64,000 nt of DNA from an uncultured delta proteobacterium (GTDB lineage: Bacteria > Desulfobacterota > Binatia > JACPRU01). Shown here in pieces: positions 37,017 to 64,000 of this stretch. The notes beneath the pieces are model-generated. The model searched no databases. It saw only the letters and a program-made list of their open reading frames with translations, and was not told the DNA's origin. The stretch covers positions 224,001 to 288,000 of the forward strand of contig CAVUWD010000013.1 of assembly GCA_963745025.1 (NCBI GenBank), given 5' to 3'. Within the stretch, counting starts at the first letter, position 1. The number at the start of each line of letters is the position of its first letter. The translations under genes were made by a program, and so were the position numbers.

Positions 37017-37031
37017 GGTCAATCAACTCCA

Positions 37032-44645: not shown

Positions 44646-46133
44646 GTGAAAGTGCTCATGCTCAACCCGCCGTTCCTGCGGCGTTATTCACGGTCGCAGC
44701 GTAGCCCGGCGGTGATCAAAAGCGGGACTCTCTACTACCCGATCTGGCTCGGGTACGCGACCGGTGTCCTCGAAGAAGCCGGCCATGACGCACGTCTCAT
44801 CGATGCCCCGGCGCGCGGGTACGAGCTCGAATGGGTGAAGGACTTCACCCGGGACTTTCGACCGGACGTCATGGTCCTGGACAGCAGCACGCCGAGCTTC
44901 CAGTCGGACGTGCGCGTCGCTGCGGAGCTCAAGGCCGTCGCTCCCGAAGCACCCGTGGTCTTCGTGGGCAACCACGTCTCCGCAACCGCCGAAGAGTCAC
45001 TCCGCAAGGGCGAGGTGATCGACGTCGTCGCGCGCGAGGAGTACGACTTCACGCTGCGCGAGCTCGTTCCTGTGCTCCACGAGCGCGGGGATCTGAGCAC
45101 GGTGGGGGGCATCTCCTTTCGCCGAGGCTCGGAGATCCGGCACAACCCTCGACGCGAGTACATCTGGGATCTCGACAAGATTCCCTGGGTCAGCAAGGTG
45201 TGGAAGAAGCACCTGGACTATCGCGATTACTTCTACTCGATCACGCAGTACCCGGAGATCACGATCGTCACCTCGCGCGGGTGCCCATATCACTGCTCGT
45301 TTTGCGTGTATCCCCAGGTGATGCACGGTCACAAGTACCGCCGCCGTAGTGCGCAGGACGTCGTGAACGAGTTCTGCTACGTCGAGCGCGAGTTCCCGAA
45401 CGTGAAGGAGATCTTCATCGAGGACGACACCTTCACCATCGATCCGAAATGGCTCCTCGACTTTTCGCAGTGCATGGTCGCCTCCGGTTGCAAGCTCCAG
45501 TGGACCGCGAATTCGCGCGTCGATCTGAAGCCGAACGTGCTGCAGGCGATGAAGCGGGCGAACTGCCGGCTGCTGTGCGTCGGCTTCGAGAGCGGTAACC
45601 AGGAGATCCTCGAGCGCATGCACAAGGGGATCGATCTCGACGAGACGAAGTCGTTCGTCCGAGACGCGCAACAGACCGGCATCATGGTCCACGGATGCTT
45701 CATGTGCGGGAACCCTGGGGAGACGCGCGCGACGTTCGAGCAGACGGTTCAGCTCGCGATGGAGATCAATCCTGACACGGCTCAGTTCTTCCCGATCATG
45801 GTCTATCCCGGCACCGAGACGTACAACTACTACAAGCAGAAGGGCCAGATCCGCAGCGAGAACTACGAGGACTGGATCACTCCCGAGGGCTGGCACAACT
45901 GCGTCGTGAGCACGCCGGATCTGTCGCACGAGGAGATGGTGCGGCTGTGCGACGAGGCGCGAGACCGCTTCTATCTACGACGCGAGTACGTTTGGTCGAA
46001 GCTGAAGCAGGTCTTGCATCACCCGAGCGAGTTCACTCGGGTCAGCATGGCTGCGAAGAACTACTTCCTCAGGTACATGACCAAGCGGTGGAGCCAGCGG
46101 AGTCACCTCGAGCGGTCTCTTCCCGCGGGTTGA
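44646..46133 (+). CDS. B12-binding-domain radical SAM protein (HpnJ/BchE-like) 1
   Basis: N-terminal B12-type Rossmann domain, TSRGCPYHCSFC, IEDDTF, VGFESG, YPGTE. Confidence 0.9.
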   Translation: MKVLMLNPPFLRRYSRSQRSPAVIKSGTLYYPIWLGYATGVLEEAGHDARLIDAPARGYELEWVKDFTRDFRPDVMVLDSSTPSFQSDVRVAAELKAVAPEAPVVFVGNHVSATAEESLRKGEVIDVVAREEYDFTLRELVPVLHERGDLSTVGGISFRRGSEIRHNPRREYIWDLDKIPWVSKVWKKHLDYRDYFYSITQYPEITIVTSRGCPYHCSFCVYPQVMHGHKYRRRSAQDVVNEFCYVEREFPNVKEIFIEDDTFTIDPKWLLDFSQCMVASGCKLQWTANSRVDLKPNVLQAMKRANCRLLCVGFESGNQEILERMHKGIDLDETKSFVRDAQQTGIMVHGCFMCGNPGETRATFEQTVQLAMEINPDTAQFFPIMVYPGTETYNYYKQKGQIRSENYEDWITPEGWHNCVVSTPDLSHEEMVRLCDEARDRFYLRREYVWSKLKQVLHHPSEFTRVSMAAKNYFLRYMTKRWSQRSHLERSLPAG

Positions 46134-46208
46134 CCGGCTCCCCGCCATGTCGTTCTCGCCGGTCGGTCAAGCCGAAGAGCCCTGGGTCGGTCGCTTTAGG
46201 GGAGCGGA

Positions 46209-47174
46209 GTGATCTCGGTCGTGGTGCCAGCGTTCAACGCAGCGGAGACCATCGATTCCTGCCTCGTCGCGCTGGCGAGGCAGACGGTCCCCGAAGACCG
46301 CTACGAGGTGATCGTCGTCGACGACGGCTCGATCGACGGGACCGCCGCGTGCGCGGAAAAGCGCGGGGTTCGGGTCCTGCGTCAGACGAACCAGGGACCG
46401 GCGGCGGCGCGCAATCACGGCGCCCGCGAAGCCCGCGGCGAATTGCTCCTCTTCACCGACGCCGACTGCGTTCCGGCGGCGAACTGGATCGAGGAAATGG
46501 CGAAGCCTTTCGCGAACCCCGAGGTCGCGGGGGTGAAAGGGATCTACCGCACGCGACAGCCCGAGCTGGCGGCGCGCTTCATCCAGGTCGAATACGAGCA
46601 CAAGTACGAGCGCATGCGCCGACGTCGGGAGATCGACTTCGTCGACACGTACTCCGCGGGGTTCCGGCGCGACCTCTTCCTGAGCTACAAGGGCTTCGAC
46701 ACGAGCTTCCCGTCGGCGTCCGTGGAGGACCAGGAGTTCTCGTTCCGTCTCGCGGAGAACGGCCGCAAGATGGTCTTTCAGCCGACCGCGGCCGTGTTCC
46801 ATCGCCACCAGCCCAACTTCGCGGGATACCTGCGCCGCAAGTTCTACGTCGCATACTGGAAGGTGCGCGTGCTGCTGAAGCATCCGAAGAAGGTCGCCGG
46901 CGACGCGCACACGCCCGGGTCGCTGCGGCTGCAGATCGTTCTCACCTATGCCTTCGCCGGAGCCCTGCTCGCGGCCCTCCTCTTTCCCCGGGCGCTCGTC
47001 CTCGCCGGCTTGAGCCTCGCCGCCTTCCTTGCAAGCACGCTGCCGTTCGTCTCCTTTGCTCGAGGCCGCGATCCCTCGGTCGCGCGCCTGGCGCCCGGTC
47101 TGCTGTTCCTGCGCTCGATTGCCTTTTGTGCCGGGCTAGTGGCGGGCGCGTTCGGCCGGATCGCGAGACGATGA
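46209..47174 (+). CDS. glycosyltransferase family 2
   Basis: ISVVVPAFN, VVDDGS, FTDADC, EDQE; C-terminal TMs. Confidence 0.92.
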   Translation: MISVVVPAFNAAETIDSCLVALARQTVPEDRYEVIVVDDGSIDGTAACAEKRGVRVLRQTNQGPAAARNHGAREARGELLLFTDADCVPAANWIEEMAKPFANPEVAGVKGIYRTRQPELAARFIQVEYEHKYERMRRRREIDFVDTYSAGFRRDLFLSYKGFDTSFPSASVEDQEFSFRLAENGRKMVFQPTAAVFHRHQPNFAGYLRRKFYVAYWKVRVLLKHPKKVAGDAHTPGSLRLQIVLTYAFAGALLAALLFPRALVLAGLSLAAFLASTLPFVSFARGRDPSVARLAPGLLFLRSIAFCAGLVAGAFGRIARR

Positions 47175-48232
47175 CCGGCGGCGAACGAAAACGCGTTCTC
47201 GTCTTCGGCGCCCCGGCCGCGGCCGCGACAATCGCTCGACGCTTGGAAGGCGAATATCCGATGCAGTTCGAGTACGTGGGCTTCTCCGACGAGAACGGCC
47301 GCGATGGACGTCCGAGCGGAGGAGAACGGTTCTCGCCCCACGACTTCGACGGCGCCTCGTCGCAGGCGGCGTCTCTCCTCGGCCTCCTCGAGCACACGGG
47401 TGCAGAGGTCGTCTTCTGCGCCGCGCCGCTCCGTTACGCGTCGTTGACCGACGTCACGCTGCGGCTGTCACCGGCGAGCCGGGTCGACTTTCGCCTCCCG
47501 CCAGAGGTGTACGCGCAGACTGTCGAGCCGGTCCGAGCCCCGACCAACGGCTTCTTCGGATCGCTGAGCCTTCGCGAGCCCAATCTCCCGCCTTGGCACC
47601 GACGGCTCAAGCGCGCCATGGACATCGTCCTCTCGCTCCTCATGCTCGTTGCCTGCGCCCCGATCTTCCTGGTGGTTCCGATCCTCATCAAGTTGTTGAG
47701 CCGCGGCCCGGTCTTCCACACGCAAATCCGCGCAGGCCAGAACGGCTATCCATTCCGCCTCTACAAGTTTCGCTCCATGGTCGCGAACGCCGAGCAGCTG
47801 CTCTCGCAGCAGGTCGCACTCGACGCCGGCGGCGAGCCCGTGTTCAAGCTCGTCGACGACCCCCGCGTTACCGCCTTAGGGAAGATACTCCGGCGCACGA
47901 GCATCGATGAGCTACCCCAGATCTTCAACGTGCTGCGTGGCGAAATGAGCTGGGTTGGACCGCGACCGGAGGAGGTGCACATCGTCGAGAAGTACAACGG
48001 CTACCAGCGCCAGCGGCTGCGAGCGCGACCCGGTGTCACGGGCCTACAGCAGATCCGTTGCCGCGGCGTCCCCTCGATGGAGGAACGCATGGTTGACGAC
48101 CTCGAGTACATCGAAACGCAGACGCTCTGGATGGACCTGAAGATCCTCGTGAAGAGCGTCTTCGTGGTGCTGTCGCTCAAGGAAGTCCGCTGGCCGAAGC
48201 GCGCCGCCCGCCGTATGGTCGTGACCCGATGA
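47171..48232 (+). CDS. priming sugar transferase (WcaJ/EpsE family)
   Basis: LKRAMDI, YKFRSM, DPRVT, SIDELPQ, GEMSWVGPRP. Confidence 0.92.
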   Translation: MTGGERKRVLVFGAPAAAATIARRLEGEYPMQFEYVGFSDENGRDGRPSGGERFSPHDFDGASSQAASLLGLLEHTGAEVVFCAAPLRYASLTDVTLRLSPASRVDFRLPPEVYAQTVEPVRAPTNGFFGSLSLREPNLPPWHRRLKRAMDIVLSLLMLVACAPIFLVVPILIKLLSRGPVFHTQIRAGQNGYPFRLYKFRSMVANAEQLLSQQVALDAGGEPVFKLVDDPRVTALGKILRRTSIDELPQIFNVLRGEMSWVGPRPEEVHIVEKYNGYQRQRLRARPGVTGLQQIRCRGVPSMEERMVDDLEYIETQTLWMDLKILVKSVFVVLSLKEVRWPKRAARRMVVTR

Positions 48233-49269
48233 ACGACGCACGTCGCCGGCGCCTCGTCACGGGTAGGGCGCGGTGGCTGGCGGCCGCGCTGACGCTCGCG
48301 GTCCTTTCCGGGTGCTCGGCCCGCCGAGCCCAGTCCGCGAAGGAGATCTCGGCTGCTGCGGCTCCGCCTCCGGGCGAGGCCGCGTTTCAAGAGGCGGGTA
48401 ACCTCTCGATGGCGCAGTCACTCCAAGCGGAGACCCCCGAGGACTATCGCCTGGGCCCGGGCGACACCGTGGAGATCTCGCTCCTCCGCCATCCAGAGTT
48501 CCACGCCGACGTCACGATCGGCCCGACGGGTAACATTCTCTACTACCTCGTGGGCGAAGTCGCGGCACGCGGGCTCACGCTGCTCGAGCTGCGCGAGGCA
48601 CTGCGCAGCCGCCTGACGGCCTTCGTGCGGGAGCCCGAGGTGCTCGTGCGTATCACCGAGTACAGGAGCCAGCGCGTCTACGCGCTCGGGCAGGTGCGCA
48701 ACCCCGGGTTCTACCCCCTGCGCGGCCCGACGACGCTCGTCGAGCTGATGGCCATGGCGGGAGGGTTCACCGACCGCGCGTTCCTGCGCGGCGCGTACCT
48801 GGTGCGGGGCGGCAAGCTGACGATCATCAACTTCCCCGCTCTGTTCGAGAAGGGAAACATGGGGGAGAACGTCCCCGTTCATGCCAACGACATCGTCTTC
48901 ATCCCGGACCAAAACGACCAGAAGGTGTTCCTCCTCGGCGAGGTGAGTCATCCGGCCGCGATCATACTCGAACGCGACCTCACGCTGCTCCAGGCCATCG
49001 CCGTCGCCGGGGGCTTGACCCGGGACAGCGACTGGAAGAGTGTGCTGCTTCTCCGCGGTGGCCTGAGCAACCCGCGCTACGTCGAGCTCGATGTGAAGGA
49101 GATGCTGCGCGGAAAGGACCGCCGCGGTGATCTCCTCCTCGAGCGGGGCGACATCATCTACGTGGCGAGCACGCCGATCACCGACGTCGCGCACTTCATG
49201 GCGCAGATCTCGACGATCCTTTCGCCGATCTTCAACGGCTTCCAGGTCCGCTACGTCATCCGGCCCTAG
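48229..49269 (+). CDS. wza: polysaccharide export lipoprotein (Wza/SLBB)
   Basis: Lipobox LSGC, YRLGPGD, two SLBB repeats. Confidence 0.88.
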   Translation: MNDARRRRLVTGRARWLAAALTLAVLSGCSARRAQSAKEISAAAAPPPGEAAFQEAGNLSMAQSLQAETPEDYRLGPGDTVEISLLRHPEFHADVTIGPTGNILYYLVGEVAARGLTLLELREALRSRLTAFVREPEVLVRITEYRSQRVYALGQVRNPGFYPLRGPTTLVELMAMAGGFTDRAFLRGAYLVRGGKLTIINFPALFEKGNMGENVPVHANDIVFIPDQNDQKVFLLGEVSHPAAIILERDLTLLQAIAVAGGLTRDSDWKSVLLLRGGLSNPRYVELDVKEMLRGKDRRGDLLLERGDIIYVASTPITDVAHFMAQISTILSPIFNGFQVRYVIRP

Positions 49270-49302
49270 TAGCGGAAACGCGCCGCACGAAAGGACGCAT
49301 AG

Positions 49303-51366
49303 ATGGAGCTCCAGCAGATTCTCGACATTCTGCGCCGCCGGAAGCGGATGGCTCTGCTGACGTTCCTGGTGGTCACGGTGACCGCGATGGGGATCACCTT
49401 TCTCCTCACGCCGACGTACACGGCGTCGAGCAAGATCTACATCAAGCCGGTGACGGAGGTCGCCGCCAGCCTGAAGATCCCCGTCCTGACCGAAGTGGCC
49501 TCCCTGCTCACCCAGAGCAGCGACGCCGACGTCGGCATGGGGCTCGCGCTGTCGCGGCCGTTGATGGACCGCATGGCGTCCACGCTCCAACTGCGCAACG
49601 ACGTCGGAGACGTGCGTAAGGCGGACGACTTGATCGTTTCGACCCTGCTTTATCCGCTCTTCCCGAAGCCCCTCGTCGAGATCATCAAAATCCCGGCAAC
49701 GAGCCTCCTCCAGCTCTTCGTATACGACACCGATCCGCAAGAGGCCGCGTTGATGGCCACAACGCTGGCCGACCTCATGGTCGAGGAGAGCCGCCAGGAC
49801 ACCCGCGCGGAATACCGGAGCGCGCTCACCTTCGTGGAAGAGCAAATCCAGGGCGTCAAGGGCCAGTACGACGCCGCGCTCGACGCGGTCCGACGCTTCC
49901 AGGAGGAGCATCAGACCGTGAACCTGGGCACCGAGAAACAGCTCGCAGCCGACGAATTCGCGGGTCTCCTGAAGCAGAAGGAGAGCGACCTGGTCCAGAT
50001 GGCGCAGGCGCGCGTCAAGCTCGAGACCATTCGAAGCCAGACGCAAAGGCCGTCCGGGGAGGGTGTCGCGACGTTCGTTCTCGACGAGAACCCCCAGGTA
50101 CGAGCGCTGAAGGAGCGCCTTTCGACCCTCGAGGTCGAGCTCGCGGCCGCCCTCACCGAGTTCACGGAGGCTGCTCCTCAGGTAAAGGTGCTCCGCCAGG
50201 AGATCGCTCGCGTCCGCAGCGAGCTGCCGAAGGAGCTACAGGTGCAGCAGGCGACGGGCGTCGCAGCCGCGACGCTCGAGCGCGAGATCGATGGCCTCGG
50301 GGCGCACCTCACCGGCGTGGACGCCGCCATCGACAAGCTCGTCGGCTCGTCGTTTCGCGGATTGCCCGCAAAGTCCGCCGAGCAGGCACGGCTCGATCTC
50401 GCGGTGAGCGCCACCGAGCGCGTGTACGAGTCCCTGCTCGAATACCGAAACCAGATCGGCGTGGCCGAGGCGTCGGTGCTGTCGAACATCCGGGTTGTCA
50501 ATCCGGCCGTCGCGCCGCTCTGGCCGACGAGCCCGAACAAGCTCTTGAACCTGGCGGTCGCATTGGCTCTCGGCGCGTTCCTGGGCATGGGCCTGGCATT
50601 CCTCCAGGAGACCCTCGACGACTCGTTGAGGAGGCCCGGGGACCTCGAGCTTGGGCCGACGAAGGGGCTCCCGGTGCTGGCCACGATCCCGCGCTTTCGC
50701 GGCGCCGACGCCGCTTCGATCGCCTCGCTGCCCCCAGCCGCCCCGCCTTGCGAGGCCTATCGAGCGCTGCGCCACGCTCTCGAGTTCGCGAGCCCCGAGC
50801 GGCCCCTAAAGCGGCTCCTCTTCACCAGCGCCTGGGCCGGGGAAGGCAAGACGACCACCGTCGCCAACCTCGGCGTCACCCTCGCGCGCGACCACAAGCG
50901 CGTGCTGCTGGTGGACGCCGACCTGCGTCAGCCCGGCCTCGATCTCTTCTTCCACGGCCAGCCGGCACAGCTCGGGCTGGGCGACGTCCTCGCGGGCGTA
51001 GCCGAGCTCGACGAGGTGATCCGTAAGACCGACATCGAAGGTCTGCACCTCCTGCCCGGCGGTCGGCCGCCGGTCGATCCCGCGGAACTGATCGAGTCGA
51101 GCCGTCTCCGCGAGGTGATCGAGACCGTCTCTGCGCGCTTCGACGTCGTGCTGATCGACAGCCCGCCGGCGCTCCTCGTGAACGACGCCCTGATCCTCGG
51201 GGGAGCCGTCGACGGCGTGGTCGCCCTCTTCCAGAGCGGAGGCGTTTCGCGGGAGGACGCTTTGGCGTTATGCGAGCGCTTGCGGCGCGCGAGGGTGCCA
51301 TTGGTCGGCGCGGTGCTCACCAAGTTCGCCCCCCAACGGGGATCGGCTCCGCATGGCTACTATTGA
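49303..51366 (+). CDS. wzc: polysaccharide co-polymerase / tyrosine kinase (Wzc-like)
   Basis: Two TMs, coiled coil, PTSPN, GEGKTT, LVDADLR, LIDSPP. Confidence 0.88.
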   Translation: MELQQILDILRRRKRMALLTFLVVTVTAMGITFLLTPTYTASSKIYIKPVTEVAASLKIPVLTEVASLLTQSSDADVGMGLALSRPLMDRMASTLQLRNDVGDVRKADDLIVSTLLYPLFPKPLVEIIKIPATSLLQLFVYDTDPQEAALMATTLADLMVEESRQDTRAEYRSALTFVEEQIQGVKGQYDAALDAVRRFQEEHQTVNLGTEKQLAADEFAGLLKQKESDLVQMAQARVKLETIRSQTQRPSGEGVATFVLDENPQVRALKERLSTLEVELAAALTEFTEAAPQVKVLRQEIARVRSELPKELQVQQATGVAAATLEREIDGLGAHLTGVDAAIDKLVGSSFRGLPAKSAEQARLDLAVSATERVYESLLEYRNQIGVAEASVLSNIRVVNPAVAPLWPTSPNKLLNLAVALALGAFLGMGLAFLQETLDDSLRRPGDLELGPTKGLPVLATIPRFRGADAASIASLPPAAPPCEAYRALRHALEFASPERPLKRLLFTSAWAGEGKTTTVANLGVTLARDHKRVLLVDADLRQPGLDLFFHGQPAQLGLGDVLAGVAELDEVIRKTDIEGLHLLPGGRPPVDPAELIESSRLREVIETVSARFDVVLIDSPPALLVNDALILGGAVDGVVALFQSGGVSREDALALCERLRRARVPLVGAVLTKFAPQRGSAPHGYY

Positions 51367-51383
51367 TTCCTGAGGACTCCGCG

Positions 51384-51944
51384 ATGACTCGACGTTCGGT
51401 TTTGTGGATGGCATGCTGTCTGCTCGCCGCCGCATGCGGCCGCGACGCAGGACTCGTCAAGCGGCTCGAGAGCGACAACCCGATCGTGCGGCTCTCGGCG
51501 GCGCGCGAGATTGCGATCTACGCTGCCGCCACTGGGGTTTGGGGAGTGGCCGTATGGGTGCTAAAGGGCGTTCCCGGTTCCTCCGTCACCCGTGTGCTCG
51601 TCGAGCGCCTCCAGGACCCCTTGGCCGAGATCCGCCGGACCGCAGCTCAGGCGCTCGGCAACCTGCACATCCGTGAGGCCAGCGAGCCTCTGGCGGCGGC
51701 GCTGCGAGACGAGGTCCTCACGGTCCGGCTCGAAGCCGTCTCCTCTCTCGGCAAGATCGGTGATCCCCGGGGACTGCAGCCGCTCGCCGCCGTCCTCCGC
51801 GATCCTGAGCTCCAGGCGTCCGCGATCTGGGCGCTCGGCGCGATCGGCGACCGCCGGGCGGTTCCGCTGCTCAAGCCGCTTGCCGAGCACCCCGACGCAG
51901 CGGTCCGCTTGAACGTGCGCCGCGCGCTCGCCAAGCTCGGCTGA
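51384..51944 (+). CDS. HEAT-repeat lipoprotein
   Basis: LAAAC lipobox; repeated A..ALG.IG. Confidence 0.8.
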   Translation: MTRRSVLWMACCLLAAACGRDAGLVKRLESDNPIVRLSAAREIAIYAAATGVWGVAVWVLKGVPGSSVTRVLVERLQDPLAEIRRTAAQALGNLHIREASEPLAAALRDEVLTVRLEAVSSLGKIGDPRGLQPLAAVLRDPELQASAIWALGAIGDRRAVPLLKPLAEHPDAAVRLNVRRALAKLG

Positions 51945-51968
51945 TCCACTGCTGATCTGGGCCTGCGA

Positions 51969-54289: not shown

Positions 54290-54291
54290 TC

Positions 54292-55419: not shown

Positions 55420-56885
55420 AGATCGCGTACCTCGATGGTCCATGGCCGGATTTCGGCCATCGCACGCAGCGTTGGGCTCACAAGAATCCGGGTGGCAACA
55501 TCAACCCGCCGCCCCTCTTCCAGATGTACTCCGCTTCGATCGCCCGGCAGCGAGGGCACGAGGTCGCGCTGTGGGACGCACCGGCGCGCGGCCTCGACTA
55601 CGACGAGCTCCTCGGGCAGGTGGGCGAGTTCGGCCCCGATCTCGTCGTCGTGAACACCTCGACGCCGAGCTTCGATCACGACATGACGCTCGTCCGCAAG
55701 CTCGAGAAGAGCGTGAAGGCGGTGCGCGTGCTGGTCGGCTCTCACGTCTCCGCCCTCCCGGACGACGTGATGGCGAAGCACCCGGAAGTGGACATCATCG
55801 CCACCGGTGAATACGACGACACCATCAGCGACATCGCCGAGAACCTCTCGGACCTCTCGAAGATCGGTGGCGTCGTCTATCGCAAGAGCGGCGGACACGC
55901 GCGCACCGGCGTGCGGCCCCTGATGAAGAATCTCAACGAGCTGCCGTTCCCCGCCTACGACCTGGTGAACGTCAACGATTACCGGGAGTCGATGTTCCCG
56001 GCGCGGAAGAAGCCGATCGCGACCATGTGGACGAGCCGGGGCTGCAACTTCCACTGCAACTTCTGCCTGTTCCCGCAGATCTTCTTCCAGGACCGCATGC
56101 GCATCCGCACCCCGGAGAACATCGTCGCCGAGATCCGCTGGCTGAAGGACAAGTTCGGCGTCCAGTTCTTCTACTTCGAGGACGACAACTTCACGGCTTC
56201 GTGGAAGCGCGTCGAGACGCTCGCGCAGCGCATCATCGACGAGAAGCTGGACATCACCTGGGGATGCCTCTCCAGGACCGACGGCGTCACTCCCGAGCGG
56301 CTCGGGCTGATGAAGGAGTCCGGCTGCTACATCGTCAAGTTCGGCATCGAGACCGGCGTCGAGGAGTTCCTCGAGCACATGGAGAAGTACAACAAGATCA
56401 GTGAGATCGAAAACGCCTTCGAAGTCGCGAAGAAGGTGAACATGGTGACCCACGGAACGGTGATGATCGGCAACGCCGGCGAGACGTGGGACACGATTCG
56501 CCGCACGCGCCAGTTCATCAAGAAGCTCGCGCCGGACTCGGTCCAGTTCAGCGTGTGCACGCCGTTCCCGGGGACCCGCTTCTTCGACGAGTGCAAGGAG
56601 AAGGGCTGGCTCGACTACGAGAAGTGGGAGGACTTCGACGGCGTGACGGGCGGTGCGATCAGCTATCCCGGCCTGTCGAAGCACGACATCCAGCGCGCGG
56701 TGAAGGACTCCTACCTAGACTACTATTCCTCGTTGCCGCACGTCCGGCAGCGCTTCCGGCGGATCCTCTACGGGCCGGAGCGCGGATCGCAGATGATGCG
56801 CAATCTCTGGCTCGCGAAGCGCTTCTTCCGGATGGTTCTCAAGGAGCGTCGGCAGGTGTTGCAGGCGGCTCACGCCAGAGCCTGA
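55416..56885 (+). CDS. B12-binding-domain radical SAM protein 2
   Basis: TSRGCNFHCNFC, FEDDNF, FGIETG, PFPGT; paralog of 44646-46133. Confidence 0.9.
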   Translation: MKIAYLDGPWPDFGHRTQRWAHKNPGGNINPPPLFQMYSASIARQRGHEVALWDAPARGLDYDELLGQVGEFGPDLVVVNTSTPSFDHDMTLVRKLEKSVKAVRVLVGSHVSALPDDVMAKHPEVDIIATGEYDDTISDIAENLSDLSKIGGVVYRKSGGHARTGVRPLMKNLNELPFPAYDLVNVNDYRESMFPARKKPIATMWTSRGCNFHCNFCLFPQIFFQDRMRIRTPENIVAEIRWLKDKFGVQFFYFEDDNFTASWKRVETLAQRIIDEKLDITWGCLSRTDGVTPERLGLMKESGCYIVKFGIETGVEEFLEHMEKYNKISEIENAFEVAKKVNMVTHGTVMIGNAGETWDTIRRTRQFIKKLAPDSVQFSVCTPFPGTRFFDECKEKGWLDYEKWEDFDGVTGGAISYPGLSKHDIQRAVKDSYLDYYSSLPHVRQRFRRILYGPERGSQMMRNLWLAKRFFRMVLKERRQVLQAAHARA

Positions 56886-58615
56886 TGGAGCCAGCGACCC
56901 ACGTCGAGCCCGAGAAGCTGTTCGTTCTCGGGCTCGACGCCGCAACCCTCGACCTGATTCTCCCATGGGTGGAGGAGGGTAAGCTCGCTAACTTCAGCCG
57001 CCTGCTGCGGGAGGGGGCATGGGGTCCACTAGAGTCCACCCTGCACCCGCTGAGCCCGCCTGCGTGGACGTCCTTCATCACCGGTCGCAATCCCGGGAAC
57101 CACGGCATCTACGACTTCGTCGTCCACAAGCCCGGCACGCACGAGCTGATCTACACGAACGGTGGCATGCGCCGCGGAGCGTCGCTCTGGCGCCTGCTCA
57201 GCGATGCCGGGAAGCGCGTCGTGATTCTGAACGTGCCGATGACCTACCCACCCGAGCCGGTCAACGGGCTGCAGGTCTCGGGCTTCGATGCGCCTGGCAT
57301 CGACTCGGACTTCATCCACCCGCGTGCCGCACGTGACGAGATCACGCGCGCGCTCGGCGAGTTCGTCCTCCGGGACTACCCGCAGGGTCACAGTCCGGAG
57401 TCCTTCCTGAGGCAGATCCACGTGATCCTCGACTTTCACCGCCGCCTCACCTTTCACGCGCTCGAACGGTACGAGTGGGACTTCTTCATGGTGGTGTGGA
57501 GTGCGCTCGACCTCGTGCAGCACGGCTACTGGCAGTACATGGACCCGAAGTTCGCGAGCGTGTCGGCGGAAGACCGTGCCCGCTTCGGAAGCGCGATCCA
57601 CGACCTCTACGTGAAAATCGACGGCATCCTCGGCGAGCTGCTCGAGCGCCTACCCAACGGGGCGCGCGTCGCCGTGGTCTCGGATCACGGCGCCGGGCCC
57701 TGCTACAAGGCGATTTTCATCAACAAGTGGCTCGAGTCGCTCGGCTACCTGCGCTACGTGGGGGGCGCCCGGTCGGGCTCGGTCGCCGACCGAGCGAAGA
57801 CGGCGGGGCTTGCGGCGCTGAAGCTCCTCCACGGCGGGATCAAGCGCCACGTCCCTCCGGCGGGTCTGGAATGGCTGAAGCGCAGGTTCCCGGTCCTTCG
57901 CGAGAAGGTCAAGTCGCGCCTGGTTTTCTCCGAGATCGACTGGAGACACACCCGGATTTATTCCTTCGGCCGCGAGAGCACCAACCTCTTCGTGAACCTC
58001 AAGGGGAAGTTGCCGCAGGGTACGGTCGAGCCTGGCGAAGAGTACGAGCGGCTGCGCGAGACGGTGACGCGGCAGCTTGCGGAGCTCCGCGATCCCGACA
58101 CCGGAGAACCGGTGGTCGATCGCGTCTACCGGAAGGAGGAGGTCTACCACGGGGAGTGTTTGGACTTCGCCCCAGACCTGCTCGTGACGTGGCGCGATTC
58201 CACCTACACCTCCTGGCCCGGGTACTCCGACCGAACGCGAGCGATCTTCGAGTCGAGCCTGAACCACAGCGACTACAGTGATTGGTCGAGCCTGCAGAAG
58301 GGCGGGAACCATCGGCGCAGTGGCATCCTCTTCCTTCGCGGCGACGGCGTGCGCGCGGGGCACGCGCTCGCGGGCGCACGCATCATCGACCTCGCGCCGA
58401 CCCTTCTGAACCTCATGGGCGTGCCCGTCCCGTCGGACATGGACGGGATCGTGCTCGCCGACGCGTTCACGGCCGAGTTCCGGACGGCGCATCCGCCGCA
58501 GTACACCGCGGCGAAAGCGCCTCCAGCGCCCCCGGATCGACCGACGAGCGGGTACGACGAGCGCGAGAGCGAGCTGATCGCGACGCGCCTGCGCAGCCTC
58601 GGCTATGTCGACTGA
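56885..58615 (+). CDS. AlkP-superfamily protein 2
   Basis: LGLDAA, SPPAWTSFITGRNPGNHG, DLVQH, SDHG, GNH; C-terminal RLRSLGYVD. Confidence 0.88.
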   Translation: MEPATHVEPEKLFVLGLDAATLDLILPWVEEGKLANFSRLLREGAWGPLESTLHPLSPPAWTSFITGRNPGNHGIYDFVVHKPGTHELIYTNGGMRRGASLWRLLSDAGKRVVILNVPMTYPPEPVNGLQVSGFDAPGIDSDFIHPRAARDEITRALGEFVLRDYPQGHSPESFLRQIHVILDFHRRLTFHALERYEWDFFMVVWSALDLVQHGYWQYMDPKFASVSAEDRARFGSAIHDLYVKIDGILGELLERLPNGARVAVVSDHGAGPCYKAIFINKWLESLGYLRYVGGARSGSVADRAKTAGLAALKLLHGGIKRHVPPAGLEWLKRRFPVLREKVKSRLVFSEIDWRHTRIYSFGRESTNLFVNLKGKLPQGTVEPGEEYERLRETVTRQLAELRDPDTGEPVVDRVYRKEEVYHGECLDFAPDLLVTWRDSTYTSWPGYSDRTRAIFESSLNHSDYSDWSSLQKGGNHRRSGILFLRGDGVRAGHALAGARIIDLAPTLLNLMGVPVPSDMDGIVLADAFTAEFRTAHPPQYTAAKAPPAPPDRPTSGYDERESELIATRLRSLGYVD

Positions 58616-60321
58616 GCGAAAGATCCTCGCGATCGGGCTCGATGCCGCAACCTTCGACCTGATCGACCCGTGGGTGAAGGCGGGCCAGCTTCCCGCCTTT
58701 GGGCGATGCCTCGCCGCAGGCACACGAGCCGATCTCCGCTCCACGCCTTTGTCGAACAGCGCCCAAGCATGGTCCTCGTTCATCACCGGAAAGAACCCCG
58801 GGAAGCACGGAATCTACGACTTCTTCGAGCCGCGGCAGGACGGCTACGGCGTTCGCTTCGTCAACGCGAGCTTTCGAAAGGGAAAGAGCCTGTGGGGGAT
58901 GCTCGGCGAGGCGGGCAAGCGAGTCGTGGTGATCAACGTGCCGATCACCTACCCCGCGGAGGCCGTGAACGGAGTCCTGATCGCGGGTCTCGACGCACCG
59001 GGCGTGGACAGACGCATCGCGCATCCCCCCGAAATTCTGCGCGAGCTCCGGGAGCGCGTCGGGCCCTATCGGGTCGAGGCGGGCGTCTGGGGATTCATGC
59101 GCAACGGCCGCCCGGACCTCGCCCTCGAGGGGCTCCTCGAGACGATCGAGTCGCGCGCCGCGACGGCGAAGTACCTGATGGCACGCGAGCCGTGGGACTT
59201 CTTCCAGGTCGTCTTCACCGAGACGGACAAGGTGCAGCACCATTTCTGGAAGTACGTGGATCCCAGCCGTGCGGCGAGCGTGCCGCCCGAGGAGCGGCGC
59301 TACGGCGAGGCGATCTTCAGGGTGTACCAGCGGCTCGACGAGGTCATCGGCGAGCTCTGCGCTCTGGCTCCGGCGGACGTCACGGTGCTTTTGATGTCGG
59401 ACCACGGAGCGGGACCGTCGAGCCATCGCACGCTCTACATAAACCGCTGGCTCGCGCACGAGGGCTTCCTCACGTACCGGGAGCCGGGAGGTGGGCGCGG
59501 CGCCGCGGCGACACTCCTCGACGGGGCGCTCCGGGGCAGCGATCTGTTCCTCAAGAAGGTGCTCCCGCGACGCGCCAAGGAGCACCTCCTTCGCCTCTTC
59601 CCCGGCGTACGCGACCGGGTGGACTCGATGCTGCAGCTCGGCGGCATCGACTGGTCGCAGACAGTCGCCTACTCGCGCGAGAACCATCCCGCGATCTTCA
59701 TCAACCGTAAGGGCCGGGAGCCTGGCGGCATCGTCGAGCCCGGCGAGCCGACCCTGCGGGTCCGTCAAGAGATCGTGGACCGCCTCCTCGGGCTGCGCTG
59801 CGCCGAGAGCGGCGAGCCGATCGTCGACCGAGTCACCTTCGGGGAGGAGGTCTTCCACGGGCCCGAGTCGTGGCGCGGTCCGGACATCCTGTTCTCCTTC
59901 CGCGGCCACGCGTACGTGCAGCGACCGACCGGCCCGGACCGGCGCGACGGATTCTTGAAGCTACTGACGCCTGCTGAGCGCGAGCGCGCGGAGATCACCG
60001 ACCGGCCGAGCGGCATCCATCGCGACCTCGGCGTGTTCGTGGCCGCCGGGCCCGCGATTCCGGCGTCCCGCGAGATCGGGTGCGTCGACCTGTTCGACGT
60101 GACGCCGACTATCCTCTACCTGCTCGGTGTTCCCGTTCCGGACGACATGGACGGCCGAGTGCTCGTCGAGCTGTTCGCCCCCGCGTTCGTCGAGGCGAAC
60201 CCCGTCCGCATCGCGCCGAGCGGCCCGACCGTGTCGGGCGACCGGCACGCCGAGCGCGTTCGAGGAGGACGAGGAGCGGATCATCCGGGAGCGCCTCGAG
60301 GGCCTCGGCTACATCGACTGA
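58605..60321 (+). CDS. AlkP-superfamily protein 3 (one frameshift near 60250)
   Basis: IGLDAA, SAQAWSSFITGKNPGKHG, TDKVQH, SDHG, SGIH; the true C-terminus EEDEERIIRERLEGLGYID* lies in another frame. Confidence 0.85.
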
Positions 60322-60332
60322 GGCGACGCGCC

Positions 60333-60455
60333 GTGAGCACCGCCCGACCTTTGATCCTCCTCGGCATCGACGGAGGGACCCTGGACCTGGTCCTGCCGTG
60401 GGTGGACGAGAAGCACATCCGCGAGTACCTGCGCGGGCTGGGATACACGGATTGA
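60333..60455 (+). CDS. 40-aa mini-paralog of AlkP proteins (N-terminal strand + LGY tail)
   Basis: VSTARPLILLGIDGGTLDLVLPWVDEKHIREYLRGLGYTD*; TTGA overlap with the next gene. Confidence 0.65.
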   Translation: MSTARPLILLGIDGGTLDLVLPWVDEKHIREYLRGLGYTD

Positions 60456-62161
60456 AGAGCCGCATCCTCATTTTCGGTCTGGACGGCGCCACCTTCAGGG
60501 TCGCGCGGCCGCTCGCCATGGCGGGGCGGATGCCGACGCTCGCCCGCCTCCTCGAGCGTGGCGCCTGGGGCGAGCACGCCTCGACCCACGAGATCAACAG
60601 CCCGAACGCCTGGTCCACCTTCATCACCGGCAAGAACGCGGGAAAGCACGGGATCTACGGCTTCTTCGAAACCGCGCCCGGGAGCTACGACGTGCGTTTC
60701 GTCAACGGCTCCTTCCGGGCGGGGAAGTCGCTCTGGCGGATGGCGACGGAGCACGGTCGGTCGGTCGGTGCGGTCAACGTGCCGATGACGTACCCAGCGG
60801 AGGAGGTGAACGGCTTCGTGATCGCGGGACCCGACGCCCCGAGCCAGGACGCTCCTGGCTTCTGCTCGCCGCCCGACCTCGTCCGCGAGGTCGTGAAGGC
60901 GACGGGGCTGTATGTCATCGAGGCTGGTGCCTCGTCGCTCGTCCGGCAGGGGCGCCCGGCGGAGGCGCTACGCGCGCTCGAGGAGAGCATCCGGGCGAGG
61001 ACGGAGGTCGCCCGCTGGCTAGTTCGGCACCACCCAACCGACCTTTTCATGATCACCTTCACCGAGGCGGATCGGGTACAGCATCACTTCTGGAAGTACG
61101 TGAATCCGCAGCACCCCGCGAGTCAGACGCCGCAGGCGCGGGTCTTCGGAGAGGCGATTCACCGGGTTTACGAGCAGCTCGACAGGGCAGTCGCGGCGAT
61201 TCTGGACGCCGCCGGCGGCGACCCCACGGTGATCGTCGTCTCCGACCACGGGGCGGGCCCGTCGAGTGCGCGAACCTTCTTCATCAATCGCTGGCTCGAG
61301 TCGATTGGGCAGCTCGGCTTCCGTCGTGACGAATCCCTTTCCGCCAAACTTCGCCGGCCGGCCGAGCGGATGATGAACGCCGCATATCTGTACGCCCGCC
61401 GCCGCCTTTCGAAGTCGTGGAAGCGGCGCTTGCGGAGCCGACTCCCGGGCGTCAAGAACAGGATGCACACGAACCTGCTCGCCTCGTCACGGATCGATTG
61501 GCCGTCGACGCGGGCGTTCTCTCGCGAGAACCTCCCGACGATCTACGTCAACGTGAAGGGCCGCTACCCGGCAGGCACGGTGGAACCGGGAGGCGAGTAC
61601 CGGGACCTCTGCCAAGATCTCGCCGGCCGGCTCATGGCGCTCCGCTGTCCGTTCACGGGAGGGCAGATCGTCGAACGCGTGCGGATGCGGGACGAGATGT
61701 ACTGGGGGCCGTTTGTCGACAAGGCGCCCGATCTGCTCATCGAATGGAAGGATGGCGGCTACACGGAACGTCCCGAATACGTGAACCCGGGGGCCGCCTT
61801 TGTCGCAGAACTCCGGGGCCGAGAGCTCGCGCGCGCCGAGCTCGCCAGCCGGCCGAGCGGCATCCACGCGCGGGAGGGCATCTTCGTCGCGAGCGGCGAG
61901 GGCATCGTCGCCGGGCGGTCGCTCGCGGGGCTCGAGCTCTACGACGTCACGGCAACTCTCCTCTATCTCTTGGACGTCCCGGTTCCGCCTGACCTGGATG
62001 GGAAGGTGCGCACGGATCTCTTCGACGCCGACTACGCCGAGGCACGTCCCGTCCGGTACTCCGAGGAAGAGACGAGCGCACAGGCCTCCCCCCGGGAATT
62101 CTCCTCCGAGGACGCGGATCGCATCGAGGAACGACTCCGGGGGCTGGGCTACATCGAGTGA
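60452..62161 (+). CDS. AlkP-superfamily protein 4
   Basis: TTG start; FGLDGA, SPNAWSTFITGKNAGKHG, DRVQH, SDHG, SGIH; tail ERLRGLGYIE. Confidence 0.87.
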   Translation: MKSRILIFGLDGATFRVARPLAMAGRMPTLARLLERGAWGEHASTHEINSPNAWSTFITGKNAGKHGIYGFFETAPGSYDVRFVNGSFRAGKSLWRMATEHGRSVGAVNVPMTYPAEEVNGFVIAGPDAPSQDAPGFCSPPDLVREVVKATGLYVIEAGASSLVRQGRPAEALRALEESIRARTEVARWLVRHHPTDLFMITFTEADRVQHHFWKYVNPQHPASQTPQARVFGEAIHRVYEQLDRAVAAILDAAGGDPTVIVVSDHGAGPSSARTFFINRWLESIGQLGFRRDESLSAKLRRPAERMMNAAYLYARRRLSKSWKRRLRSRLPGVKNRMHTNLLASSRIDWPSTRAFSRENLPTIYVNVKGRYPAGTVEPGGEYRDLCQDLAGRLMALRCPFTGGQIVERVRMRDEMYWGPFVDKAPDLLIEWKDGGYTERPEYVNPGAAFVAELRGRELARAELASRPSGIHAREGIFVASGEGIVAGRSLAGLELYDVTATLLYLLDVPVPPDLDGKVRTDLFDADYAEARPVRYSEEETSAQASPREFSSEDADRIEERLRGLGYIE

Positions 62162-63666
62162 ACGAGAACGGAAGCGGGAAGCCACTGATGGGACCGGGCC
62201 ACGTGGAGCCGGCGCTGCGTGTGATCCGCAACAGCGGTCTCCTCATGGCGGGAGAGATGTACGGCGTATCGGTGAACCTAGTCACCGTCGGCATTCTCTC
62301 CCGCTACCTGCCGCTCGATGTGTTCGGGGACTACGGCTTCATCCTGGCCGTCTCGATGACGTTCATGGTGCTGACCGATATGGGCGCCGGCCCCATCGCG
62401 ATCCGAGAGATCGCTCGCGACCTGCGCAGTGCCGAGAAGGTGTTCGCCGCCACGGTCATTTTGCGCTGTCTGTTCTCTGTCGTGACGTTCATCGCGATCA
62501 TGGGGATGGTTCGGATGACTTCCGATTCGCCCGCGGTGCTGAAAGCGACGTTCATCTCGGCGATCGCCGTGGTCGTCTTCTTTCTCGGCGACGTTCCGCC
62601 GATTGTCTTCATCGCCTACGAGCGCATGCAGTTCAACGCGATCGTCAAGGTGGCCGCGGAAACGGTCTACCTGGCCGGGATCGTGGCGGTCGCGTTCTTC
62701 GACTTCGGCCTCAACGGGGTCTTTCTCGTTTCGCTCGCGTCGTACGCGGCGCGGCTCGCGATTGGACTGTTGATCCTGAAGCGATGCTTCTTTTCTCCCC
62801 GTCTCACATGGGATCCAGCTCTTCTCCGGTGGCTCTTCCTCGAGGCTCTGCCGGTCGGCGCCAACCGGCTTCTCCGGAAGGTCAGCTTCCGGATCGATAC
62901 GATCCTTCTCCAGGTCCTGAGGACCCGGGAAGAGGTCGGAATTTTCCACGGGATCTACCGAGTGGTCCTCGGGGTGCTCTTCGTCCCGCGGATGATCACG
63001 GACGCGCTCTTCCCTCTCTTCGCGCGCTACTCCGAGGGATCTTCCGTCGCGATGGCGGTCTCCTTCGAGAAGTCGATGAAGTTTCTTCTGATCCTCGTGC
63101 TCCCGCTGATGCTCGTCGTCTTCGTCGACGCGGAAGGCATCGTCGTGCTCCTCCTCGGCAAGAACTTCGCGTCCACGGGCGGGCTCTTGCAGCTCTTCTG
63201 TCTGGTCTGGGGGGTGTCGTTCTTCAGTGTGCTCTGCGACAAGGTGCTGAACGCGTCGAACCACCAGCGCCTCGCGACCATCGCCACCGCCTGCTGCGTC
63301 GCCGTCAACCTCGCCCTCGATCTCGCGCTGATCCCCTCATTCGGTTACATGGGGGCGGCGGTGGCGACCCTGTGCGCGGAAACGGTGCTTTTGGTCGTCG
63401 GATTCCGTTTCGTCTCGACCCGGATCTGTCGCGTAGCGGTGGTTTCCGTCCTGTGGAAGCCGGCCTTCGCAGGTGTATCGGCCGCGCTCGTGGCGTCCGT
63501 GCTTTCGTCCTCGGCGCCTTGGATTCGGGCATCGATCGCCCTCGCGGCGTACGCCTCGCTCTTGTTGGCGCTCGGCGCGTTCGACCGATCGGAGATCGAC
63601 GTGCTCCGCGCCGCGGGCCGACAGCTGCATCGCCGGTTCACGCACCTCGCGGCCGCGCCGCGCTAG
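62158..63666 (+). CDS. wzx: Wzx-type flippase
   Basis: Multi-TM; LSRYL..FGDY, IDTILL..VGIF, NLALDLALIP.FGYMGAAVAT. Confidence 0.88.
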   Translation: MNENGSGKPLMGPGHVEPALRVIRNSGLLMAGEMYGVSVNLVTVGILSRYLPLDVFGDYGFILAVSMTFMVLTDMGAGPIAIREIARDLRSAEKVFAATVILRCLFSVVTFIAIMGMVRMTSDSPAVLKATFISAIAVVVFFLGDVPPIVFIAYERMQFNAIVKVAAETVYLAGIVAVAFFDFGLNGVFLVSLASYAARLAIGLLILKRCFFSPRLTWDPALLRWLFLEALPVGANRLLRKVSFRIDTILLQVLRTREEVGIFHGIYRVVLGVLFVPRMITDALFPLFARYSEGSSVAMAVSFEKSMKFLLILVLPLMLVVFVDAEGIVVLLLGKNFASTGGLLQLFCLVWGVSFFSVLCDKVLNASNHQRLATIATACCVAVNLALDLALIPSFGYMGAAVATLCAETVLLVVGFRFVSTRICRVAVVSVLWKPAFAGVSAALVASVLSSSAPWIRASIALAAYASLLLALGAFDRSEIDVLRAAGRQLHRRFTHLAAAPR

Positions 63667-63714
63667 GATCGACGAGGGCGCGAACCGGCCGCTGAGAAAG
63701 GATCATTCCAGGCC

Positions 63715-64000
63715 ATGAATCCCGAACCGAAGAAGGTCTTCGTACTGGGCCTCGACGGCGCGACGCTCGACGTGCTGAAGCCCCTCGCCGAGAGCGGACG
63801 ACTGCCGAACATCGCCGCTCTCATGCGCGGTGGCGTGCACGCAAAGCTGAACTCCACGATTCTCCATCACTCGGCTCCGGCGTGGACGTCGTTCGCCACG
63901 GGAAAGAATCCGGGTAAGCACGGGATCATCGGCTTCACGAAGATCCAGCGGAACACCTACAAGCTCGCGCTGGTCAACGGCGCCTCCAACCGGGCGAGAA
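63715..64000 (+). CDS. AlkP-superfamily protein 5 (partial)
   Basis: MNPEPKKVFVLGLDGAT...SAPAWTSFATGKNPGKHG; runs off the window. Confidence 0.85.
   Translation, partial: MNPEPKKVFVLGLDGATLDVLKPLAESGRLPNIAALMRGGVHAKLNSTILHHSAPAWTSFATGKNPGKHGIIGFTKIQRNTYKLALVNGASNRAR

Follow-up and report, generated by a model that had tools for sequence, protein, structure and literature searches.

The 3′ part of a 64,000-nucleotide stretch of DNA from an uncultured delta proteobacterium (hereafter the window; positions 224001-288000 of contig C13 of the source genome) is occupied by a polysaccharide operon, continuing past its end, in which six paralogs of the alkaline phosphatase (AlkP) superfamily, two B12-binding radical S-adenosylmethionine (SAM) proteins, rSAM1 and rSAM2, and a GTPase of the COG0523 family are encoded among the genes for polymer assembly and export. 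The operon combines three putative tailoring modules that are conserved separately elsewhere, namely the AlkP array, with AlkP1 coupled to the COG0523 gene, rSAM1 with a family 2 glycosyltransferase (GT2) and in some loci a priming transferase, and a family 4 glycosyltransferase (GT4) with rSAM2. The reading we prefer, held at somewhat short of an even chance, is that sulfate would be added to the lipid-linked repeat unit in the cytoplasm and that sugar skeletons would be modified independently by radical chemistry. An initial annotation of this DNA had proposed a phospho, sulfo or phosphonate substituent; judged from gene neighbourhoods, only sulfate among these has comparative support.

Mechanistically, the AlkP proteins would modify the polyprenyl-linked repeat unit at the cytoplasmic face before it is flipped by Wzx, the most likely chemistry being transfer of sulfate from 3′-phosphoadenosine 5′-phosphosulfate (PAPS) via a covalent Ser/Thr-enzyme intermediate at a two-metal centre. 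AlkP1 would be metallated by the co-translated COG0523 GTPase, and a C-terminal helix with the residues LGY, carried on a flexible linker by the long paralogs, would serve as a docking tag that gathers sulfate-handling enzymes. Through ring rearrangement or C-methylation, each of the two HpnJ-like radical SAM proteins would alter the carbon skeleton of the sugar that its partner glycosyltransferase installs. Each AlkP paralog may serve a different position. A more far-reaching version is possible, though on balance doubtful: that the AlkP family constitutes a new glycan sulfotransferase class with the alkaline-phosphatase fold as its scaffold, with COG0523 as its dedicated metal chaperone, a tail that docks a single cytoplasmic sulfation assembly, and a heavily sulfated, skeleton-modified polymer as the product. 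Such an assembly would join adenosine 5′-phosphosulfate (APS) kinase, PAPS_reduct-type proteins, sulfatase-fold enzymes and position-specific AlkP paralogs.

The AlkP family, its tail and sulfate activation

All six paralogs match PF01663, at 104-148 bits against a gathering threshold of 23 bits, with PF00884 not among their matches in the Pfam scan, and their identity to AlkP2 is 32-38%; the paralogs appear to be old. The initial annotation had counted at least five AlkP-fold proteins with their metal ligands kept, a serine in an S-x-x-x-W motif and no obvious signal peptide. Six are found, AlkP6 lying downstream of the window, together with a relic of a seventh, and alignment bears out the motifs. 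The ligands D18, D209, H213, D267, H268 and H476 (AlkP2 numbering) are invariant in the six and in wider family alignments. In a profile alignment with ENPP5, the motif serine (threonine in AlkP6) falls on the nucleophilic threonine of the nucleotide pyrophosphatases/phosphodiesterases (NPPs); this residue is serine in 73 and threonine in nine of 82 long forms, and serine in 17 and threonine in nine of 26 short forms. At the position of the NPP asparagine the long forms have alanine (80/82) or serine (2/82), and at that of the NPP histidine all 82 have tryptophan, giving a family motif [ST]-x-x-[AS]-W and not the C/S-x-P-x-R maturation motif of formylglycine (S1) sulfatases. Because the first core strand lies at residue 7-18 in all six, which leaves no room for a signal peptide, and because none has a transmembrane (TM)-like segment outside the core, the AlkP proteins are taken to be cytoplasmic; the possibility that they are exported generic hydrolases, raised with the initial annotation, falls away.

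The active-site and fold comparison that had been suggested gives an NPP-type protein. An AlphaFold2 model of AlkP5 (pLDDT, the per-residue confidence, 91; pTM, the global one, 0.92) has as its nearest folds ENPP7 (Z 27.9), Xac NPP (Z 27.0), ENPP6 (Z 26.8) and ENPP4, the range being 26.5-27.9. PafA follows at 26.2, S1 sulfatases, the second-best class, at 22-25 and LtaS-type proteins at 18. A Foldseek match to the NPP-type fold has E 2e-16, the best solved relative by sequence reaches only E 1.3e-7, and a search of the ESM Atlas with AlkP1 returned only ‘phosphodiesterase family’ clusters. With the NPPs (Xac NPP, ENPP1-7) the AlkP proteins thus share the core fold over ~350 aligned residues, the six metal ligands and the position of the Ser/Thr nucleophile, yet sequence identity is only 12-19%, and ~190 residues have no NPP counterpart, a helical insert at 302-352 among them. 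The NPP motif is T-x-P-N-H, of which the asparagine contacts the phosphoryl group. NPPs have a signal peptide or membrane anchor, being secreted proteins or ecto-enzymes, whereas the proteins considered here are cytoplasmic, bear the LGY tail and occur as arrays of paralogs in glycan operons.

The family is large. When 1.84 billion representatives of 50%-identity clusters were searched with a profile, 33,145 matched at E<=1e-3 and 11,191 at E<=1e-30. In a search for related loci, AlkP5 as a single query gave one weak match, and alignments were used as queries there instead. Close homologues are named just ‘predicted AlkP superfamily phosphohydrolase/phosphomutase’ in Joint Genome Institute (JGI) annotation, a name that we take to be that of COG3379, or ‘alkaline phosphatase family protein’. 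No paper on the family came to light in literature searches that covered the family itself, HpnJ with polysaccharide, and NPP with exopolysaccharide (EPS) and APS kinase. From species-representative genomes, scanned with a degenerate pattern, came 80 AlkP-centred loci, spanning Chloroflexota, Planctomycetota, Nitrospirota, Desulfobacterota, Acidobacteriota, Bathyarchaeia and others, with 151 open reading frames (ORFs) of the family that are frequently tandem, in arrays of 2-5 in loci other than the present one. Since GT2 (36/80), GT4 (34/80) and Wzx (20/80; 15 plus 5) recur in these loci, along with epimerases, deacetylases and GT-C proteins, the association of the family with glycan assembly, of which conservation had been in question, is seen to hold across phyla.

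The subfamilies are resolved in a FastTree phylogeny of 220 members. AlkP1 is within a 100%-supported clade of 29 short AlkPs that consists of those directly downstream of tailed APS kinases and two COG0523-linked relatives. A second clade with 100% support (n=13) unites the short AlkPs upstream of such kinases with the short AlkPs that five relatives have next to COG0523. AlkP3 has AlkP4 as its nearest relative, and the converse holds too (50% identical over 472 tree columns), and AlkP5 and AlkP6 pair with genes of a genome from the same taxonomic family (L260).

What points to sulfate is the company that the family keeps. Among the 53 commonest annotated neighbour families of the AlkP-centred loci, APS kinase is the sole gene that activates a donor of a non-sugar substituent. 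It is present in seven of the 80 loci, in the order kinase - short AlkP - AlkP - AlkP - YfhO - Wzx - AlkP - GT2, and the kinases there end in an acidic run plus LGY, as the long AlkPs do. When the 80 closest APS-kinase relatives fetched are considered, 29 have the tail; a member of the AlkP family is within 8 kb of 22 of the 29 tailed kinases, often 4-130 bp away, as against five of the 51 untailed ones. All 22 loci contain at least one untailed AlkP, and Pfam scans of four kinase loci give the core order short AlkP - tailed APS kinase - short AlkP; ATP sulfurylase is also present in two kinase-AlkP loci (L223 and L234). Of the substituents first proposed, sulfate has therefore gained, as APS kinase, ATP sulfurylase and PAPS_reduct proteins adjoin the family or share its tail; genes for phosphonates or cytidine diphosphate (CDP)-alcohols are not among the 53 families.

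Within the operon, the five long paralogs bear the tail and AlkP1 does not. In the AlkP-centred loci 119 of 5,496 ORFs are tailed: 111 AlkPs, five APS kinases, two sulfatase-fold proteins and one PAPS_reduct-domain protein, the last directly upstream of an AlkP1-type gene. In control loci centred on radical SAM genes the count is four of 6,181 (one AlkP, two PAPS_reduct and one sulfatase-fold), and in the source genome six of 29,368, all of the AlkP superfamily. The AlkP5 model has the tail as a helix (553-565, pLDDT 62-75) behind a low-confidence linker, and a helix behind a poorly ordered linker is as would be expected for a docking element.

Several further occurrences of the tail were encountered. 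Some tailed ORFs of 81-250 aa match no family, or RHH_1 weakly. Those of 81-101 codons (L251:4121-4363, L248:10044-10292, L175:638-880, L224:4042-4308, and in L183, L190 and L221) either follow the COG0523 gene immediately, as in relatives, or are close to a tailed APS kinase, as in other phyla; weak ribbon-helix-helix matches are given by two of them and no match by the rest, and they could be adaptor or regulatory parts of a tail assembly. On another contig of the source genome, C15:67119-68639 (- strand; L262:7119-8639) encodes a PF00884 sulfatase-fold protein ending ...LRALGYVE, with T-D-P-A-H at the C/S-x-P-x-R position of the formylglycine sulfatases. Similar tailed proteins from ~630-codon ORFs, with hydrophobic N-terminal regions and an S-W-T-R-P-S motif, are found in the EPS loci of relatives. 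Two metagenome-assembled genomes (MAGs) of Proteobacteria have tailed PAPS_reduct proteins (L098:13444-14802 and L105:16088-16948) together with the ortholog pair of rSAM1 and its GT2, so that proteins of the sulfate-linked tail system occur together with the radical SAM module elsewhere too, with no AlkPs in the stretches fetched.

As to a receptor for the tail, an Ignavibacterium album MAG has a family member fused to a long array of tetratricopeptide repeats (TPRs; L223:3152-5404), adjoining ATP sulfurylase, a short AlkP, a tailed APS kinase and another short AlkP. Peptide tails are ligands of TPR domains, which makes the fusion a candidate clue to the receptor. A HEAT-repeat protein encoded in the present operon was considered as a general receptor and rejected, HEAT proteins being in two of the 80 AlkP loci and this one looking exported.

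Competing explanations for the AlkP proteins

A number of observations weigh against sulfation by these proteins. Pfam scans detect no gene for APS kinase, sulfurylase or PAPS_reduct in the operon, its downstream part included; reading on along the contig for APS kinase, a sulfotransferase or phosphoenolpyruvate (PEP) mutase, as had been advised, yielded none of them, and AlkP6, an FAD oxidoreductase and Wzy instead. The sole strong APS kinase match of the genome is untailed and on another contig (C2, within the stretch 179035-184859, L264). In 73 of the 80 AlkP-centred loci there is no APS kinase within 10 kb, the AlkP-COG0523 loci of relatives have COG0523 in the position that the kinase takes in other phyla, with no kinase in any of them, and the counts from kinase loci overstate independence since these loci were chosen via the kinase and many are interrelated. 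Ordinary sulfotransferase genes (PF13469) occur in the genome, clustered and only on contig C11, and another is in the L185 kinase-AlkP locus, so the AlkPs need not be sulfotransferases. The array is absent from a genome of the same genus (82% complete). Moreover, the nearest solved folds are phosphodiesterases, NPP-type centres attack phosphorus, and we know of no AlkP-fold sulfotransferase, nor did the literature searches turn one up. The AlkPs could instead hydrolyse PAPS, its product 3′-phosphoadenosine 5′-phosphate (PAP), or pyrophosphate.

Some of this is open to qualification. The Sulfotransfer_1/2/3 domains have no match in any protein of the operon, which lowers the prospect of a known sulfotransferase and not that of a protein working as one. 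As the C2 contig carries APS kinase and ATP sulfurylase, PAPS is available in the genome. There, the kinase gene comes after genes for a GT-C protein (PMT_2) and a GT9 heptosyltransferase-like protein, with the ATP sulfurylase gene adjoining on the opposite strand; to judge from these neighbours, PAPS synthesis is in an envelope-glycan and not a cysteine-assimilation context.

Two known arrangements provide partial parallels. In Haloferax volcanii, deletion of agl7 leaves the dolichol-phosphate-linked glycan unsulfated, and the product (HVO_2046) is annotated as N-acetylgalactosamine-4-sulfatase in Table S1 of the same study (PMC3892788). Agl7 would thus resemble the proteins discussed here in its AlkP-superfamily annotation, its location in a glycan cluster and in being needed to add, not remove, sulfate on a lipid-linked sugar before flipping; it differs in being archaeal, single-copy and of the sulfatase branch, not PF01663, a placement made by annotation alone. 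The second parallel is with loci for sulfated capsular polysaccharide (CPS), in which PAPS supply is described as a hallmark and cysC/cysDN accompany ordinary sulfotransferases (PMC11641403). Canonical sulfated CPS/EPS loci (cysC, cysDN or sat, and Sulfotransfer_1/2/3) have polysaccharide assembly and PAPS supply in common with the kinase-AlkP loci found elsewhere. In contrast to them, there is no P-loop sulfotransferase in the present operon nor among the ORFs tested in L223, L234 and L176; where the canonical loci have the sulfotransferase, AlkP-fold enzymes stand, and the kinase bears the AlkP-type tail.

Of the alternatives to sulfation, the best placed, though unlikely, is that the AlkPs transfer or trim phosphate groups on the lipid-linked repeat (phosphoglycerol, phosphoethanolamine or sugar-1-phosphate addition, or phosphodiester cleavage) with a soluble cytoplasmic donor. 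It is modelled by analogy on EptA/MCR-1, LtaS, OpgB and the glycosylphosphatidylinositol (GPI) ethanolamine-phosphate transferases, members of the AlkP superfamily that transfer an anionic substituent to glycoconjugates via a covalent Thr/Ser intermediate; these are membrane proteins with extracytoplasmic catalytic domains and lipid donors, in contrast to the soluble, cytoplasmic AlkPs here. The phosphodiesterase fold and ligand set, with the Z scores for NPPs and PafA and the PF01663 matches given above, are what a phosphate-handling enzyme would have. Phosphoryl transfer classically employs a Ser/Thr nucleophile at a two-metal site, and the lack of a sulfate-activation gene in the operon is also in its favour. 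However, genes for CDP-alcohols, phosphocholine and phosphonates are absent from the 53 commonest annotated neighbour families; of the genes that supply a substituent donor, those for sulfate activation alone accompany the family and have its tail. In addition, the NPP asparagine that contacts the phosphoryl group is replaced by alanine or serine in all 82 long forms.

Less probable again is that the AlkPs are hydrolases of by-products or precursor pools (PAP, PAPS, APS, pyrophosphate, nucleoside diphosphate-sugars, polyprenyl pyrophosphate) with no part in glycan tailoring. NPPs cleave nucleotide pyrophosphate bonds, including that of UDP-GlcNAc (an ENPP3 complex is among the structural matches), and taking away pyrophosphate and PAP drives the reactions of APS kinase and ATP sulfurylase, which short AlkPs flank. 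The ordinary sulfotransferase in the L185 locus is a further point in favour. Yet six paralogs at their level of divergence, with arrays of 2-5 elsewhere, are hard to fit to housekeeping clean-up, the subfamilies are old and conserved across phyla, and a common docking-like tail argues for cooperating, substrate-specific enzymes.

Radical SAM modules and the COG0523 GTPase

Both radical SAM proteins are of class B, with an N-terminal B12-binding domain and a radical SAM core in which C213, C217 and C220 (CxxxCxxC) are invariant, and they are 30% identical to each other. On the HpnJ model TIGR03471, rSAM1 scores 409.4 bits and rSAM2 274 bits, both over the full length and below the 577.6-bit cut-off. 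The models for P-methylases of the PhpK family give 120-127 bits, far under HpnJ, and a role as PhpK-like P-methylases is not borne out. For HpnJ, contraction of the glucosamine ring in a lipid-linked sugar has been proposed, and in a sequence-similarity network this protein clusters with the sugar/phosphonate C-methylases MoeK5 and Fom3 (PMC9204698).

An alignment of the radical SAM proteins was used to fetch a further 80 loci, 26 of which have close relatives of rSAM1 (>=400 bits; orthologs at 430-550 bits). In these 26 a GT2 ortholog is directly downstream in 15 (scoring 270-330 bits), and 14 of the loci contain a priming transferase; none has an AlkP. The context is that of EPS/CPS and not hopanoids, and one such locus is in a cultured gut Clostridium, Clostridium symbiosum ATCC 14940 (L117); with the HpnJ model the EPS-linked relatives in L091 and L117 reach 341 bits and 406 bits, respectively. 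For rSAM2, GT4 directly precedes the nearest relatives in L107, L108, L111 and L150. Because of the pairing with glycosyltransferases, the HpnJ similarity and the lack of co-occurrence with AlkPs, both are read as probable modifiers of the sugar of the partner glycosyltransferase, independent of the AlkPs. In this respect the initial annotation, which had AlkP and B12 radical SAM proteins in a single pathway, is not supported, and what it took as one resolves into the three separately conserved modules.

The resemblance to HpnJ, which with HpnI and HpnK serves the hopanoid cyclitol ether, is in having a cobalamin radical SAM protein next to a glycosyltransferase on a lipid-linked sugar. The differences are scores below the equivalog cut-off, a partner GT2 with no HpnI match at E<=0.001, and neighbours that are the priming transferase, GT2, Wza and Wzc rather than hpnI, hpnK or shc, shc not having been searched for in the genome. 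The GT2 that partners rSAM1 has three C-terminal TM-like segments, starting from residues 239, 258 and 294, and thereby resembles polyprenyl-phosphate sugar synthases of the GtrB/ArnC type. A GT-C (PMT_2) gene is downstream on the opposite strand (L003:13062-15002). Given these two features, the substrate of rSAM1 may be a polyprenyl-phosphate monosaccharide.

That the radical SAM proteins build or methylate a phospho, sulfo or phosphonate group for the AlkPs to attach, as the initial annotation had it, is now highly improbable. The genes are in one co-oriented operon, the rSAM2 stop abutting the AlkP2 start, the PhpK models do give a score, and nine of the 80 AlkP loci have B12 radical SAM ORFs, 17 in all and 16 on the AlkP strand. 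However, 71 AlkP loci have none, nor do the AlkP-COG0523 loci of relatives; AlkPs are in 0/26 close-rSAM1 loci as against the adjacent GT2 ortholog in 15; HpnJ is by far the better model for both; and no PEP mutase was found nearby. Least probable of all, and close to negligible, is that the radical SAM proteins modify the AlkPs by analogy with the anaerobic enzymes that mature sulfatases at an active-site Ser/Cys: radical SAM maturation of AlkP-superfamily sulfatases is established and the genes are co-operonic here, but rSAM1 relatives are in loci without AlkPs, most AlkP loci have no B12 radical SAM, the two proteins are class B cobalamin enzymes with no SPASM match listed, and the AlkPs do not have the C/S-x-P-x-R target motif.

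The third component, the COG0523 GTPase, appears to be translationally coupled to AlkP1, its start overlapping the AlkP1 stop by four bases. Orthologs that are 48-54% identical are in ten of 40 relatives' genomes, and a short AlkP abuts the COG0523 gene in seven of the ten loci fetched; given this adjacency, the pairing, which the initial annotation had pointed out, is a conserved feature at the level of the lineage. The relatives' EPS loci have a priming transferase, GT2, Wzx, Wzc, tailed long AlkPs and tailed sulfatase-fold proteins. A universal partnership of COG0523 with AlkPs was rejected, as none of the 80 AlkP-centred loci has the gene, which was found in same-class relatives alone. The protein shares with the COG0523 metallochaperones (CobW, ZigA, YjiA/YeiR) the cobW GTPase domain, CobW_C, a P-loop (GSGKTT) and CxCC (GCICC in the translation). 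It is below all the named-subfamily cut-offs (CobW 151 vs 332 bits, ZigA 131 vs 600, YjiA 124 vs 361) and, unlike those subfamilies, is in an EPS operon and coupled to an AlkP-fold putative client, a pairing of which we know of no description, no literature search having been aimed at it.

Operon layout, surroundings and significance

From 44646 to the end of the window all genes are on the + strand and tightly packed, several stops overlapping the next start by 1-4 bases, as seen from ORF listing and scans with Pfam and NCBIfam; these scans confirmed every gene that the initial annotation had named in a single co-oriented, coupled operon. The window holds the first ~three quarters of a unit of ~25.5 kb that runs to ~70115 in window numbering, the strand switching after Wzy. 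With a priming transferase, Wzx, Wzy and a Wzc/Wza pair in one locus, it has the gene set of a Wzx/Wzy-dependent pathway. The priming transferase, whose start overlaps the GT2 stop, scores 298.4 bits on TIGR03025 (cut-off 295.55), and the N-terminus of the HEAT-repeat protein is tentatively read as a lipobox.

Table 1. Genes of the polysaccharide operon in window coordinates, with those beyond the window given by their position in L003
Feature	Position	Strand	Basis
rSAM1, B12-binding radical SAM, HpnJ-like	44646-46133	+	PF04055 77 bits, PF02310 55 bits
GT2 glycosyltransferase, rSAM1 partner	46209-47174	+	PF00535 122.5 bits
Priming transferase (polyprenyl-phosphate glycosyl-1-phosphate)	47171-48232	+	PF02397 206.6 bits
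Wza-type outer-membrane polysaccharide export protein	48229-49269	+	Poly_export and two SLBB domains
Wzc-type co-polymerase / tyrosine autokinase	49303-51366	+	Wzz, GNVR, AAA_31; TIGR01007 142.6 bits
HEAT-repeat protein, lipoprotein-like N-terminus	51384-51944	+	HEAT_2 91.7 bits; N-terminus ...CLLAAACG
AlkP1, short (453 aa), no LGY tail	51969-53330	+	PF01663 147.8 bits
COG0523 (CobW/ZigA-type) GTPase	53327-54289	+	cobW domain 156.9 bits, CobW_C 50.4 bits
GT4 glycosyltransferase, rSAM2 partner	54292-55419	+	Glyco_trans_1_4 and Glycos_transf_1
rSAM2, B12-binding radical SAM, HpnJ-like	55416-56885	+	PF04055 and PF02310
AlkP2, long, C-terminus ...RLRSLGYVD	56885-58615	+	PF01663 127.5 bits
AlkP3, long, frameshifted	58605-60321	+	Three-frame translation; +1-frame end ...RLEGLGYID
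Putative relic of seventh AlkP paralog, 40 codons	60333-60455	+	Frame translation, raw sequence
AlkP4, long, TTG start, C-terminus ...RLRGLGYIE	60452-62161	+	PF01663 104.2 bits
Wzx flippase	62158-63666	+	Polysacc_synt 96.5 bits; 13 TM-like segments
AlkP5, 570 aa; first 95 codons in window	63715-65427 (L003:1715-3427)	+	Continues past window end
AlkP6, 555 aa, Thr nucleophile (TPQAW)	L003:3432-5099		Downstream of AlkP5
FAD amine-oxidase-like oxidoreductase	L003:5220-6686		Downstream of AlkP6
Wzy polymerase	L003:6631-8115		Wzy_C 41.4 bits

Two places in the array are disrupted. AlkP3 has a frameshift near 60233-60238, its real end being in the +1 frame. A ~95%-identical contig from another sample (run X1) has two extra bases at the break and reads through, and thus the break is either recent or an assembly error. 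Contigs from other samples were used for interpretation at this frameshift only, the joints there, short-sided and metagenomic, being disregarded. The relic between AlkP3 and AlkP4 fuses the first ~22 residues of an AlkP (LILLGIDGGTLDLVLPWV; LILLGIDGGT...) to an LGY tail (...YLRGLGYTD), and its stop overlaps the TTG start of AlkP4; presumably it is the remnant of a seventh paralog after an internal deletion.

Directly past Wzy, at L003:8160-9640 (~70160-71640 in window numbering), is a gene for an exported Cys-type sulfatase with a signal peptide and the motif APVCNPSR. At least eight frame changes interrupt its reading frame, and single-base indels set it apart at several places from contigs of other samples; the gene has either decayed to a pseudogene or been poorly assembled. 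The presence of such a gene fits a sulfated polymer, circumstantially.

Unrelated genes precede position 44.6 kb; they encode haem-copper oxidases, Usp proteins, a sigma-54 activator, acyl-CoA enzymes and a repeat protein. Two genes for haem-copper oxidase subunit I are on the - strand in 22502-34870, separated by cytochrome c genes, a COX2 gene and three Usp genes. The sigma-54 response regulator (35589-37022) comes after the oxidase genes, and all of these are apparently unconnected with the polysaccharide operon. Just 5′ of the operon and on the same strand, 42623-44395 is a 590-codon ORF of ‘ELW(K/R)SDGT’ repeats with a weak match to the PQQ_2 beta-propeller. Scans for promoters (two sites vs 1.2 expected) and terminators (13 vs 9.1) gave numbers not above chance; one promoter-like site, at 44530-44559, is in the gap 5′ of rSAM1. 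A search of sequencing runs listed no RNA run, and the DNA runs share <=0.15 of words.

What follows for biology depends on the module considered. The pairs of HpnJ-like radical SAM protein and glycosyltransferase point to unexplored radical sugar chemistry in capsules, including that of the cultured gut Clostridium (L117). The conserved COG0523-AlkP pairing offers a defined client for a metallochaperone family for which, to our knowledge, few clients are known. The AlkP family itself is very large and spread over many phyla and some archaea, without a solved close relative. If its members sulfate polysaccharides, many environmental EPS loci without ordinary sulfotransferases would be re-read as loci for sulfated polymers, with a bearing on the chemistry of biofilms, granules and soil aggregates and on the making of sulfated glycans, and a new mechanism would be added to those of biological sulfuryl transfer.

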